Of a stretch of DNA of 64,000 nucleotides, positions 47,533 to 51,550 are shown piece after piece (the stretch's first letter is position 1; each line of letters begins with the position of its first letter). Under the pieces are notes generated by a model, which ran no database searches, was not told the origin of the DNA, and saw only the letters and a program-made list of their open reading frames with translations. Source of the stretch: an uncultured Solirubrobacterales bacterium (GTDB lineage: Bacteria; Actinomycetota; Thermoleophilia; Solirubrobacterales; Solirubrobacteraceae); contig CAWFHB010000003.1 in NCBI GenBank assembly GCA_963815565.1, positions 470,329-534,328 on the forward strand. Direction: 5' to 3'. Position numbers and translations under genes: made by a program.

Positions 47533-47580
47533 AGTTAGAAGACAGTTGCAAGTATACGCCCGGTGTGGGAGGCTCGCACC

Positions 47581-49041
47581 GTGCCCCTCCATGATGTCGT
47601 GATCGTCGGTGCCCGCTGTGCCGGTGCCACCGCAGCCGCCGAGCTCGCCCGCTCCGGGCTCGACGTCGTCGTCCTCGACCGGGCGCGCTTCCCCTCGGAC
47701 ACGCTCTCCACGCACGTGCTCTTCGGGGGCGGGATCGAGGAGCTCAAGCACATGGGAGCGTTCGAGAAGGTCCTGGAGCACGACCCGTCGTTCATGCGCA
47801 CGCTCGACATCCACTTCGACAACGAGGTGCACGTGAGCGAGAAGTGGGGAGCCGCCGGCAAGACGGACTACGTCATGTGCATCCCCCGGCCGATCCAGGA
47901 CGAGATCCTCGTGGAGACGGCGCGTGAGCACGGCGCCGACGTCCGCGAGGGCTGGGAGTTCGTGGACGTGCTGTGGCGGGGCGGACGCGTCTGCGGGGTG
48001 CGGGCCAAGGACCCCGACGGGGAGCTCCACGAGCTCGGTGCGAAGCTCGTCATCGGCGCCGACGGGCGCAGGTCCACGGTCGCCGCGCGCGTGGGCGCCT
48101 GGAACCCGTACCGGGCTTCGAAGAACGGGCGCGGGCTCGTGTTCCGGTACGTCGACGACCCGCACGTGGGAACGCCGCTCAACGAGACGCTCTCGCAGTG
48201 GCGCGACGGCGACTCCTTCTGCATGACGTTCCCGAGCGCCCCGCGGCCGCGCATGATCGCCCTGGTGATGGGGCCGGCCAGCGACGTGGCCCGCGCCCGC
48301 AAGGATCCCGACGGGGTGTGGGACGAGTTCCTGCGGCGCCACCCGGGCTTCGCGGAGCGCATCGCCGGCGGGACGAACCTGTCGAAGCTCCGTTCCACCG
48401 CCGACGTCCCCGCGTACTTCCGGGCCTCCAGCGGCCCCGGCTGGGCGCTGGCCGGGGACGCGGGGCACTTCAAGGACCCCGTGATCGGCAACGGGCAGCG
48501 AGACGCGATGTGGATGGGCCGCTCGCTCGGCGCCCGCGCCGCGGCGGCGATCGGGAACCCGGAGAGCCTCGACGCCGCGCTCCGGCGCTGGGAGCAGGAG
48601 CGCGACGAGGAGTGCTTGTCGGTCTACCACTTCGCGAACTCGGAGACGCGCATCCAGCCACAGTCCCCCGTGCTCGTGCAGCTCGCCCGGCGCGCGGCCG
48701 GCGGGGTCGGCGACCCGGACCTGGGCGACATCTTCCAGCGGGTGCGTGACCAGCAGGAGGTGCTGCCCCTCACACGGATGGCCGGCGGGTTCGCCGGCGC
48801 CCTGGCCCACGCCGCGCGCCACACGCCCCGTCGGGTCCCGGCGACGCTGCGAGGAGGGCTCGACGACCTGCGGGTGGATCTGCAGATCCGCGCCGAGACC
48901 CGGGCCAAGCGCTTCCGCAGCACCCGCACGGTGACCGGCTCCGAGCACCCGGGCTGGAGCTGGCCCGCGCCCCCGAAGCGCCCTGCGGCACCGGTCGTGG
49001 AGCACCGCACCGAAGCGCCGGCGCTGTCGGTGCTCGCATGA
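47581..49041 (+). CDS. FAD-dependent oxidoreductase/monooxygenase (geranylgeranyl-reductase-like)
   Basis: DVVIVGARCAG...LDRARFPSDTLSTH, LVIGADGRRS, WALAGDAGHFKDP. Confidence 0.88.
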   Translation: MPLHDVVIVGARCAGATAAAELARSGLDVVVLDRARFPSDTLSTHVLFGGGIEELKHMGAFEKVLEHDPSFMRTLDIHFDNEVHVSEKWGAAGKTDYVMCIPRPIQDEILVETAREHGADVREGWEFVDVLWRGGRVCGVRAKDPDGELHELGAKLVIGADGRRSTVAARVGAWNPYRASKNGRGLVFRYVDDPHVGTPLNETLSQWRDGDSFCMTFPSAPRPRMIALVMGPASDVARARKDPDGVWDEFLRRHPGFAERIAGGTNLSKLRSTADVPAYFRASSGPGWALAGDAGHFKDPVIGNGQRDAMWMGRSLGARAAAAIGNPESLDAALRRWEQERDEECLSVYHFANSETRIQPQSPVLVQLARRAAGGVGDPDLGDIFQRVRDQQEVLPLTRMAGGFAGALAHAARHTPRRVPATLRGGLDDLRVDLQIRAETRAKRFRSTRTVTGSEHPGWSWPAPPKRPAAPVVEHRTEAPALSVLA

Positions 49042-50081
49042 GCTCGCGTACGCCCGTCCGGGTCGCCGCGGTCCAGGCCCACCTGGCGCTCGGCGAGGTC
49101 GAGCGCAACCTCGTCCACCTGGAGGACCTGATCCGCGACGCGCACCGCGCGCACGCCCCGCAGCTCATCGTCGTCCCCGAGGCGTGCACCTCGCCGAACG
49201 TCTTCGCCGCGGAGCTGCGCGGCGTCGCGCGTCCGGTCGACGGTGCGGCCTTCCAGCTGCTCACCCGGCTCGCCCGGGAGCTCGACGTCGTCGTGGCCGG
49301 CGGGGCGCTCTCGCGCCGCGGGAAGGACACCTACGGCACGTTTCTCGTGGCCGAGCCCGACGGCCGCGCGCACCTCCACGACAAGGACATCCCGACCGCC
49401 TGGGAGAACCACTACTACCGCGGCGGGGACGACGACGGGCGCGCCCACTTGACCGCGCTCGGGCTCGACCTCGGGATGGCGTCGGGCTGGGAGTGGGCCC
49501 GCCACCGGACCGCGCGGCGGCTCCGCGGGGTCGACCTCGTGCTCGGCGGCATGTGCTGGCCGTCGTTCCCGCTGAACTGGACGGCCCCGGGCCTCGCCTG
49601 GTGGGTCCGGCGCGAGCACGCGATCTGGCGGCGCCAGTGCCGCGAGCTCCCTGGGCAGTTCGCGCGGCTCGTGGGCGCGCCGGTCGTCCACGCGGCCCAC
49701 GTCGGCCCGGTGGACGCCCGGTTCCCCGCGGTACCGGCGATCCCGTGGCGGACGCAGATGCTCGGCGAGACGCAGATCTGCGCGGCCGACGGCACGGTGC
49801 TCGCCCGACGCTCGCTCGAGGAGGGCGAGGGCCACATCTTCGCCGAGGTCCAGCCAGGATCCGTCGCCCCGCTCGACGAGGTCAGCGACCGCTTCTGGAT
49901 CCCGGTCATGACCGCCTCGACCCAGGCGGCCTGGCACGTCATGAACGCCCAGGGCCGGCTCGACTACACCCTGAAGAAGCTCCGCCGGCGGCACGAGTGG
50001 CAGTCCTGGCCGGCGGGCGATCTCCCCGACGAGCTCCCCCCGGTCACCGGGGACGAGCAGCACTTCGCCACGACGCGTTAG
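49038..50081 (+). CDS. Carbon-nitrogen hydrolase (nitrilase-fold) family protein with an atypical nucleophile site
   Basis: VAAVQ, VVPEA (Glu), HDKDIP (Lys), GMASGWE where GxxICWE is expected; ATGA overlap with the upstream gene. Confidence 0.85.
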   Translation: MSSRTPVRVAAVQAHLALGEVERNLVHLEDLIRDAHRAHAPQLIVVPEACTSPNVFAAELRGVARPVDGAAFQLLTRLARELDVVVAGGALSRRGKDTYGTFLVAEPDGRAHLHDKDIPTAWENHYYRGGDDDGRAHLTALGLDLGMASGWEWARHRTARRLRGVDLVLGGMCWPSFPLNWTAPGLAWWVRREHAIWRRQCRELPGQFARLVGAPVVHAAHVGPVDARFPAVPAIPWRTQMLGETQICAADGTVLARRSLEEGEGHIFAEVQPGSVAPLDEVSDRFWIPVMTASTQAAWHVMNAQGRLDYTLKKLRRRHEWQSWPAGDLPDELPPVTGDEQHFATTR

Positions 50082-51550
50082 TCGAGTCCGTAGAGCCCGG
50101 CGTACTTCGTGCGCAGCTGCCGCAGGAGCGGCTCCGGGTCGAGCGCCTGCCCGGTCGCACGCTCGAGCAGCTCGGTCGGCTCGACGGTCCGGCCGTGGCG
50201 GTGGACGTGCTCGCGCAGCCACGCCCCGATCGCGCCGTACTCCCCGGCGGCGATCTGGTCGTCGAGGTCGGGGACCGCCGCGGTGAGCGCCTCCCAGAGC
50301 TGCGCCGAGACGATGTTGCCGATCGCGTAGGTGGGGAAGTAGCCGAGCTCGCCGAAGCTCCAGTGGATGTCCTGGAGGCAGCCGCGCGTGTCGTCCGGGA
50401 CCTCCACGCCGAGCAGCTCCCGCATGCCCGCGTTCCAGGCCTCCGGGAGATCGCGGACGGCGAGCGAGCCCTCGATCATCGCGACCTCGAGTCGGAAGCG
50501 GAGCAGGACGTGGAGCGAGTAGGTGACCTCGTCCGCGTCCACCCGGATCAGGCCGGGCTCGACCGCGTTGATCGCCCGCAGGAGGTCGCGGTCGGTGCAG
50601 TCGCCGACGCCCGCGCCGAACGTCTCCCGCAGCCGTGGCCCCCAGTGACGCCAGAACGGCTCGGAGCGACCGACGAGGTTCTCCCAGAGCCGGGACTGCG
50701 ACTCGTGGATGCCGAGCGAGACCCCGGTCTGCAGCGTCGTGCGTGCGAGTCCCGGGTCGATCTGATGCTCGTAGAGGCCGTGGCCGACCTCGTGCATCAC
50801 CGCGAAGAGCCCCTGCAGGTTCGCCTCCGAGTACCGCGCGGTGACCCGCACGTCCTGCGGGTTCAGCGAGGAAGCGAACGGGTGGACGGCGCGGTCGATC
50901 CGCCACGCCGACTCGTCGAAGCCGAACGTCCGGGCGATGTCACGGCCCAAGGCCTGCTGGCCGGCGACCGGAAAGGGACCGGGAAGGACCGGAGCGGGCT
51001 CTGCGGCTGCGATGTCGGCCACGAGCGGGACGAGCCCCGCCCGCAGCTGCTCGAAGACCTCGGCCACGCGGGCGGTCGTGAGCCCGGGCTCGAAGTTGTC
51101 CATGAGCGTGTCGTAGGGATGCTCGGCGTCATCGAAGCAGTCGACGTACCGGCGGCGCAGCTCGAGGTTCCGCTCGAGGAAGGGGCGGAAGAGCCCGAAG
51201 TCGTTCGTCGCGCGGGCGCGGGCCCAGGGCTCCTGCGCGCGGGCGGCGGCGAGCTCCATCTCGCGCGCGAGCCCGGCGGGCACGCGGCTCGCCTTCCGGT
51301 GATCCCGGCGCACCACGCGGACGATCGCCGCGTCGGTCTCGTCCTCGGGTTCGGCCGCGTCGAGGAGCGCGCCGAGCTCGGGCGCGACGAGCCGCTCGTG
51401 GCCGATGCTCGCGATGGTCGCCATGACCTCCCCGCGCGCCGGCCCACCGTGGGGCGGCATCTGCGTCTGCTGATCCCAGCCCAGTAGCGCCCCGGCCGCG
51501 CCCAGGTCGCTGAGCTCACCGAGCCGGGCGGCGAGCTCAGGCGACAGCAT
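50078..51550 (-). CDS. M32 family metallocarboxypeptidase
   Basis: LLGWDQQTQMP, HPFASS, MHEVGHGLYE (HEXXH), IHESQSRLWEN, IRVDADEVTY, QDIHWS...YFPTY. Confidence 0.95.
   Translation of the reverse strand: MLSPELAARLGELSDLGAAGALLGWDQQTQMPPHGGPARGEVMATIASIGHERLVAPELGALLDAAEPEDETDAAIVRVVRRDHRKASRVPAGLAREMELAAARAQEPWARARATNDFGLFRPFLERNLELRRRYVDCFDDAEHPYDTLMDNFEPGLTTARVAEVFEQLRAGLVPLVADIAAAEPAPVLPGPFPVAGQQALGRDIARTFGFDESAWRIDRAVHPFASSLNPQDVRVTARYSEANLQGLFAVMHEVGHGLYEHQIDPGLARTTLQTGVSLGIHESQSRLWENLVGRSEPFWRHWGPRLRETFGAGVGDCTDRDLLRAINAVEPGLIRVDADEVTYSLHVLLRFRLEVAMIEGSLAVRDLPEAWNAGMRELLGVEVPDDTRGCLQDIHWSFGELGYFPTYAIGNIVSAQLWEALTAAVPDLDDQIAAGEYGAIGAWLREHVHRHGRTVEPTELLERATGQALDPEPLLRQLRTKYAGLYGLD

Follow-up and report, generated by a model that had tools for sequence, protein, structure and literature searches.

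The Glu-Lys-Cys catalytic triad is treated as a universal hallmark of the nitrilase superfamily. Among the known systems closest to the protein described here are its canonical amidases and carbamoylases: the Pyrococcus horikoshii amidase PH0642 (1J31/6YPA), the Medicago N-carbamoylputrescine amidohydrolase (5H8I), and the D-carbamoylases. Moreover, the nucleophile has been removed by engineering, with the rest of the pocket intact, in three entries whose titles indicate bound ligand, namely, 6YPA C146A with glutaramide, 5H8L C158S with putrescine, and 8HPC C171A with substrate. Here, we show that a gene in a 64,000-nucleotide stretch of DNA from an uncultured Solirubrobacterales bacterium (contig CAWFHB010000003.1, positions 470,329 to 534,328; the whole stretch is hereafter called the window) encodes a nitrilase-fold protein with Gly in place of the nucleophile Cys. 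Unlike the engineered variants, which are laboratory mutants, the change in the window protein is natural, ancient, and selected, and unlike the canonical amidases and carbamoylases, the protein is obligately coupled to a flavoprotein.

Known systems resemble parts of this arrangement. In DavB/DavA, the lysine 2-monooxygenase and the 5-aminovaleramidase, a flavin adenine dinucleotide (FAD)-dependent oxygenase and a nitrilase-fold protein are encoded together, but DavA keeps the catalytic Cys and DavB is an amine-oxidase-type flavoprotein of another family than the partner in the window. HisZ, working with HisG, is a dead paralogue that keeps its ligand pocket and is an obligate subunit co-inherited with the enzyme, but its fold is unrelated to that of nitrilases, and we know of no pseudoenzyme subunit within the nitrilase superfamily. 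Closest in sequence is an uncharacterized, Cys-bearing sister subfamily (37 to 45% identity; motifs PEFF, HDKDxPTMWEN, CWE, and GGSCWW), which shares the HDKD-P-x-x-WE block, the C-terminal extension, and often the second Cys with the window protein. The sister subfamily differs, however, in keeping Cys150 within a fully intact triad, and its genes are not flanked by a close homologue of the FAD partner. The window protein also replaces active-site-proximal residues that are conserved in these nearest Cys-bearing relatives, namely, Phe49/Phe50, Ser89, Asn100, and Ser172.

Results

A nitrilase fold with glycine at the nucleophile position

The product of the gene at 49038-50081 is confidently assigned to the nitrilase-superfamily fold by profile and model. 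Pfam CN_hydrolase (PF00795) matched residues 8 to 278 (E 3.6e-16; 59.7 bits against a cut-off of 23.2), and an AlphaFold2 model built from 30 homologues had a mean pLDDT (predicted local distance difference test score) of 91.8. When superposed with VIA-align, the model matched the PH0642 amidase 6YPA with a Z score of 29.2 and a root mean square deviation (rmsd) of 2.0 A over 238 residues, and it had the same alpha-beta-beta-alpha fold as the other amidases and carbamoylases named above (Z 26 to 29, rmsd 2.0 to 2.8 A). It also superposed on about 200 further superfamily chains with Z >8, and a Foldseek comparison with the superfamily gave an E value of 6e-18.

Catalytic positions were assigned from a phmmer alignment against PDB sequences, in which the window protein was aligned with PH0642 (Table 1). 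The segment GMASGWEW pairs with GVMICFDW of the amidase, and GMASGWE spans residues 146 to 152, such that Gly150 (codon GGC, 49485-49487) occupies the nucleophile position. The elbow itself is kept in the model as strand 143-149, a turn, and helix 150-154, and like the canonical enzymes the protein has the Glu, the Lys, and the second Glu of the active site. The second Cys, Cys173, lies in GGMCWPS (residues 170 to 176), two residues past the end of the strand next to the nucleophile strand. An earlier note made from the sequence alone had read Glu in VVPEA, Lys in HDKD, and a GGC-encoded Gly in the nucleophile motif GMASGWE, all of which the alignment bears out; the note had placed the second Cys 19 residues downstream, and the actual spacing from Gly150 to Cys173 is 23.

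The protein thus has the fold and profile of the superfamily, a Glu after strand 2, a Lys after strand 5, and the second Glu, and it lacks the pattern G-x-x-x-C-[WYF]-[DE], whose Cys is the nucleophile at the elbow apex. The same genome has four other clear CN_hydrolase genes, all of which encode the canonical Cys. From its sequence, we conclude that the window protein is a superfamily member by descent and not a canonical Glu-Lys-Cys hydrolase.

Table 1. Positions of the genes, codons, and junction discussed in the text, numbered from the first letter of the window
Feature	Positions	Strand	Basis and remarks
Nitrilase-fold (CN_hydrolase) gene, Cys-to-Gly clade	49038..50081	+	Open reading frame (ORF), 347 aa; Pfam, AlphaFold2, VIA-align
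Glu48 codon, catalytic Glu of the family (VVPEA, residues 45-49)	49179..49181	+	PH0642 alignment; invariant in 182 orthologues
Lys116 codon, catalytic Lys (HDKD, residues 114-117)	49383..49385	+	PH0642 alignment; invariant in 182 orthologues
Glu123 codon, second Glu of the Glu-Lys-Glu-Cys tetrad (PTAWE)	49404..49406	+	Aligns with Glu of PH0642 YREK; invariant
Ser149-Gly150 codons (TCG GGC) at the strand-turn-helix elbow, Gly150 in the place of the nucleophile Cys	49482..49487	+	Alignment, model
Cys173 codon (TGC) in the GMCWPS loop (171-176), after the neighboring strand (167-171)	49554..49556	+	Sequence, orthologue conservation
FAD-dependent monooxygenase-like partner gene, 492 aa as called	47563..49041	+	Pfam, NCBIfam, model, Foldseek; the true start may be GTG 47581
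ATGA start/stop overlap of the two genes	49038..49041	+	Sequence
Divergent TetR-family regulator gene, 236 aa	46822..47532	-	Pfam TetR_N, E 1.8e-15; start read from the sequence

Gly150 is genuine and under selection

A TGC-to-GGC base error had been offered as one explanation of the missing Cys, but no orthologue has a TGC codon there. Across 182 distinct orthologues, conservation is 100% for Glu48, Lys116, Glu123, Gly150, Trp151, Glu152, and the whole GMCWPS loop (171-176). Among the 79 orthologous loci with readable codons, which come from different species, codon 150 is GGC in 64, GGG in 9, GGA in 4, GGT in 2, and TGC in none, and codon 173 is TGC in 76 and TGT in 3. The 120 closest database homologues (59 to 77% identity), from Solirubrobacterales such as Conexibacter and Patulibacter, all read x-[S/C]-G-W-E, and GGMCWP is present in 115 of them. 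Thus, SGWE and GGxCW co-occur, as the earlier note had proposed to check, in 115 of the 120 and in every one of the 182 orthologues.

Conservation is highest around the pocket. Conservation of at least 98% across the 182 orthologues is reached at 27% of positions, and the best-conserved part of the protein in this subfamily is made up of Glu48, Lys116, Glu123, the elbow at 149-153, and the GMCWPS loop. The ratio of nonsynonymous to synonymous substitution rates (dN/dS) was 0.13 against the nearest orthologue and ranged from 0.13 to 0.42 over the comparisons. Sequencing error and a decaying pseudogene are refuted by Gly in 182 of 182 proteins, by the use of four Gly codons, by intact reading frames, and by dN/dS, and we regard the chance of either as negligible. 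We conclude that the loss of the Cys is genuine and under selection. We note that one metagenome-assembled genome (MAG), SVL2_sbin.44, has two copies of the orthologue (L043 and L047), which are 76% and 82% identical to the window protein.

The nucleophile might instead have moved by a single residue, to Ser149 or occasionally Cys149. Of the 182 orthologues, 179 have Ser and 3 have Cys at position 149; some other members of the Gly-bearing clade read CGWE, and the Cys-bearing relatives have a hydrophobic residue at this position. Across the Gly clade, however, the position is occupied by Asn, Thr, Met, Ala, His, Ser, or Cys, and the residue before the apex of the elbow, to judge from the fold, normally faces the core, away from the pocket. 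Moreover, Ser and Cys codons are one base apart, so their exchange is weak evidence for a nucleophile. A nucleophile at position 149 therefore seems very unlikely.

The Gly clade is inherited with a flavoprotein

The gene immediately upstream encodes a FAD-dependent monooxygenase-like protein. Of 80 orthologous loci, 78 have a homologue of this partner directly upstream in the same orientation, one of the exceptions being cut off by a contig end, and the junction of the two genes was ATGA or GTGA in 73 of the 80. These loci were retrieved with a six-sequence alignment of Gly-clade proteins, which returned mainly orthologues. The pairing extends further, however, as it was also found at three paralogous copies in a related genome (nitrilase-like identity of 46 to 50%). 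Moreover, a metagenome scan with the protein P0286 gave three true relatives, and the one with usable flanks, on a soil metagenome contig, kept the pair with a 4-base overlap even though the nitrilase-like protein was 39% identical and the FAD protein 50%.

The pairing was not found outside the Gly clade. In about 23 loci of Cys-bearing relatives, no close homologue of the FAD partner lay beside the nitrilase-like gene, and two of the loci had a weak FAD match of 23 to 33%. In a set of 61 genomes of the order, the nine with a Gly-clade gene were exactly those that held a close homologue of the FAD partner (E <1e-95). We conclude that the pair is co-inherited and that the strict partnership is specific to the Gly clade. 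To judge from the junction sequence, the partner gene is translationally coupled to the nitrilase-like gene.

Several loci depart from the simple two-gene arrangement. The FAD and nitrilase-like genes form one ORF of 750 to 840 aa at two loci (L070:6519-9035 and L078:6543-9035) and in proteins P0310 and P0311. We did not use these apparent fusions as evidence, as they may be either true fusions or artifacts of single-base insertions or deletions where the two genes overlap by 4 bases; the MAGs with L070 and L078 are suspected long-read assemblies. In one related genome (G033), nitrilase-like genes of the Gly clade and FAD paralogues number four each. In this genome, the locus L035:7049-12318 has two Gly-clade genes, of which one reads ACGWE (Cys149, His173) and is divergently placed, and the second reads NGFE, has Cys173, and is coupled to a FAD gene.

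A probable single loss of the Cys

Exhaustive profile-free searching gave 818 relatives, of which those at 30 to 45% identity were mostly canonical CWE proteins. In a maximum-likelihood tree of 103 full-length proteins, all 41 Gly-bearing rows fell on one side of a single branch (Shimodaira-Hasegawa-like approximate likelihood ratio test, 100; stem length, 0.48), and the Gly label needed one state change only. By this tree, the Gly clade is monophyletic and lies inside a Cys-bearing subfamily. Because the other superfamily members all have Cys and the Gly-bearing rows group on one branch, we read the change as one ancient loss. The clade ranges over Solirubrobacterales and other Actinomycetota, with one member from a Dormibacteraeota MAG, and cultured carriers of the two-gene module are Patulibacter medicamentivorans I11, P. 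defluvii DM4, and Conexibacter sp. W3-3-2.

The rest of the active site did not remain fixed throughout the clade. Glu48 is kept in 59 of 61 Cys-bearing rows and in 30 of the 41 Gly-bearing rows, Lys116 in 61 of 61 and 31 of 41, and Glu123 in 61 of 61 and 34 of 41. The losses all lie outside the subfamily of the window protein, except for one garbled row (P0128) with a frameshifted look, and about half of the Gly-clade members outside the subfamily retain Glu48 or Lys116. Replacements include Asp48/Arg116 pairs as well as Ala, Ser, Gly, or Leu. The losses indicate that the constraint on the triad seen in true hydrolases was relaxed after the Cys was lost, and the repeated loss of Glu48 and Lys116 inside the clade lends support to a pseudoenzyme or ligand-binding protein, which the earlier note had listed among its options.

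The second Cys suggests a different explanation, in which the nucleophile was relocated. Cys173 might occupy the space freed by Gly150 and use Glu48, Lys116, and Glu123 to act as an amidase- or nitrilase-type hydrolase on the product of the flavoenzyme. Consistent with such a role, Cys173, its loop, and Glu-Lys-Glu are invariant in the 182 orthologues and likewise in relatives fused to a reductase, and an acid product would suit the acyl-CoA ligase genes that are found near two divergent loci. In solved relatives, the presumed equivalent of the loop borders the catalytic cavity, being P190-L194 in the nitrilase 8UXU (PMC7616060) and Ala183/Ile184 in MtCPA (PMC4812014).

Across the clade, however, Cys173 does not follow the pattern expected of a relocated nucleophile. 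It is present in 25 of the 61 Cys-bearing relatives (about 40%; GGSCWW), among them all 14 genes of the nearest sister group with a readable motif, and because these already carry it, the residue is ancestral and was not gained in compensation. Of 22 Gly-clade members outside the subfamily, only 9 have Cys173, the others having Ser, Phe, His, Gly, Thr, Asn, or Ile, and several members with intact Glu/Lys (P0130, P0157, P0210, and L035a among them) have Phe, His, or Ser. Thus, across the clade the second Cys was neither fixed together with the loss of the first nor coupled to an intact Glu/Lys. Moreover, a thiol two residues past the end of a strand would be without the strained geometry of a nucleophile elbow. 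The relocation that the earlier note had envisaged is therefore weakened as compensation for the lost Cys, as Cys173 varies among Cys-bearing relatives and is missing from over half of the Gly-clade members outside the subfamily; as a present-day mechanism in this subfamily, we hold it to be the main rival to the reading that we favor, possible but unlikely.

The clade also acquired features of its own. Residues specific to it are His39, Pro41, Pro53, Gly89, Tyr102, Glu106 (100%), His112, Leu113, and Trp153 (92%), together with a C-terminal motif, W-Q-x-W-P-x-x-D-L-P, and the clade has lost Phe49, Phe50, Ser89, Asn100, Trp151, and Ser172, which the Cys-bearing relatives have. His39 (49152-49154), Glu106 (49353-49355), and His112 (49371-49373) are found in 85 to 100% of the Gly clade and in at most 5% of the Cys-bearing relatives. 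Judged by strand order, the three residues should lie at the edge of the sheet opposite the active site, where they could form an interface with the partner or a metal site resembling a 2-His-1-carboxylate triad.

The partner resembles monooxygenases that depend on an external reductase

The partner matched Pfam FAD_binding_3 (PF01494; E 1.1e-22) and, under the model cut-off, the NCBIfam model TIGR02032 of the geranylgeranyl-reductase superfamily (E 2e-28). The motifs GADGRRS and GDAGHFKDP are invariant in the aligned partner homologues, and with FAD_binding_3, GxGxxG, GADG, and GDAGH all present, the protein belongs to the group A/E flavoprotein monooxygenases or the geranylgeranyl-reductase superfamily. 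Its model had a pLDDT of 91.7, and the top Foldseek matches were FasV and other halogenases, squalene epoxidase (TM score, 0.72), Lsd18, kynurenine monooxygenase, PqsL, and geranylgeranyl reductase. The best PDB matches by sequence and fold are halogenases, at only 17 to 20% identity. A flavin-dependent halogenase was rejected, as no WxWxIP motif was found in the translation and the candidate equivalent region, picked by eye, reads DSFCMTFPSAP. A match to NCBIfam QhpG (E 2e-16) scored 59.8 bits against a cut-off of 240.

Several of these relatives, squalene epoxidase, PqsL, and geranylgeranyl reductases among them, receive their electrons from an external reductase, and squalene epoxidase and PqsL are not known to bind NAD(P)H directly. 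Gly-clade relatives at 46 to 55% identity are fused at the C terminus to an FNR-like NAD-binding domain (NAD_binding_1) and a 2Fe-2S ferredoxin domain (Fer2); these forms make up nine clusters, one of them from the isolate Sporichthya brevicatena. A more degenerate Gly-clade member is fused to a quinone reductase dependent on reduced coenzyme F420 (F420H2). By analogy, a need for external electrons like that of the partner's relatives would fit the fused and adjacent reductases.

The nature of the partner raises the possibility of catalysis without a thiol. Water activated by Glu48 could directly attack a reactive oxygenated product of the flavoenzyme, such as an epoxide, lactone, imine, or activated ester, with Lys116 and the backbone NH of residue 151 polarizing the substrate, making the nitrilase-fold protein a hydrolase or lyase. 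The general base, the elements of the oxyanion hole, and the second Glu are all retained, the partner is similar to epoxidases and hydroxylases (squalene epoxidase and Lsd18, for example), and an oxygenase is commonly paired with a downstream hydrolase in catabolic and biosynthetic operons. Such chemistry would, however, be purely inferential and without precedent in the nitrilase superfamily, and it leaves the invariance of Cys173 unexplained. We think it improbable.

Alternatively, the nitrilase-fold protein might be the target or redox partner of the flavoenzyme, carrying a cofactor derived from Cys and Trp and made by the FAD enzyme, as in LodA/LodB or QhpG-like systems, or a new metal site fed by the fused 2Fe-2S reductase. 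The clade-specific Trp153, His39, Glu106, and His112, nearly absent from Cys-bearing relatives, would be consistent with such a site, as would the fusions to electron-transfer domains and the weak QhpG match of the partner. Cys173, Trp151, and Trp174 vary across the clade, however, and the likeness to QhpG is no better than that of any group A flavoprotein. Neither the strictly conserved Cys and Trp nor the specific flavoprotein family of the LodA/LodB and QhpG types was found. We consider this highly unlikely. A new catalytic type on the nitrilase fold, in which a Cys/Trp cofactor or a His/His/Glu metal site is produced by or works with the FAD partner and is fed by the 2Fe-2S or F420H2 reductases fused in relatives, seems only slightly less remote; if true, a hydrolase scaffold would have become part of a multicomponent oxidoreductase.

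Neighborhood of the pair

A TetR-family regulator gene is divergent from the pair, and a homologue of it was found in 14 of the 15 closest orthologue loci and in few distant loci. The TetR protein is likely the regulator of the pair in this sublineage. Between the TetR start (ATG 47532-47530, minus strand) and the FAD start lie about 30 to 48 bp of comparatively AT-rich sequence (47533-47562, or up to 47580 if GTG 47581 is the start). So short a spacer suggests back-to-back, possibly leaderless promoters with a TetR operator, and no inverted repeat of at least 8 bp was found in this intergenic region.

Apart from the pair itself and, in the closest relatives, the TetR gene, the orthologues share no conserved flanking genes, and we claim no wider operon. 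At the 3' end, the nitrilase-like gene overlaps a convergent M32 carboxypeptidase gene (50078-51550, minus strand) by 4 bp (50078-50081), which leaves no space for a terminator between the two. A GAF-LuxR regulator gene and an AMP-binding (acyl-CoA ligase) gene lie beside two divergent pairs, one at a paralogue in a related genome (L034) and one on the soil metagenome contig (L144). These neighbors hint at a carboxylic-acid/CoA pathway in those lineages.

Discussion

We favor, with about even confidence, a reading in which the window protein is a pocket-retaining partner of the flavoenzyme that has lost canonical hydrolysis and now binds the FAD enzyme's substrate or product or passes it on. 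The nucleophile Cys would have been changed to Gly in a single ancient event, at which point the protein would have become the dedicated partner of the FAD monooxygenase-like enzyme. The thioester mechanism at the canonical elbow would be impossible without the Cys, and the protein would be no ordinary amidase or nitrilase. The old pocket was most likely kept to bind or process a small molecule of carbonyl or amide type, either the flavoenzyme's substrate or its product, which would make the protein a natural "substrate-trapping" form akin to the engineered Cys-to-Ala or Cys-to-Ser variants. As those variants were deposited with ligand, a Gly150 protein with an otherwise intact pocket would be expected to bind such a ligand without turnover. 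The FAD enzyme would perform the redox chemistry, with electrons arriving via a separate or fused reductase.

Several observations weigh against a role confined to binding. The invariance of Glu48, Lys116, Glu123, and Cys173 in the 182 orthologues fits retained catalysis at least as well, and so does their retention in most basal lineages of the Gly clade. Moreover, the reductase-fused relatives keep Glu48, Lys116, Ser149-Gly150, and Cys173. Finally, a fourth FAD paralogue in the related genome G033 (L170:5043-6952) is start/stop-coupled to an upstream F420H2-dependent quinone reductase gene of the Ddn family and has no nitrilase-like neighbor. The nitrilase-like protein is thus not a structural requirement of the flavoenzyme family, and it may supply a separate catalytic step.

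The names of clade members in databases are generic, namely, "carbon-nitrogen hydrolase family protein," also in protein-atlas clusters, or "predicted amidohydrolase." NCBIfam holds no family model specific to the clade, all matches being far below the cut-offs, and no solved structure of a clade member was found among PDB sequence and fold matches. Moreover, a full-text search of the literature found no description of Cys-less nitrilase-fold proteins or of this gene pair. As the protein fails the defining catalytic feature, it should not carry a nitrilase or amidohydrolase annotation, and several hundred database proteins are probably annotated in a misleading way.

The nitrilase superfamily contains a whole conserved clade without the nucleophile, inherited as a unit with a flavoprotein monooxygenase. 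If the pocket-retaining partner that we favor proves instead to be active, the clade would represent nucleophile migration or thiol-free catalysis on the nitrilase fold. In either case, the two-gene module points to an uncharacterized oxygenase pathway in abundant soil bacteria.

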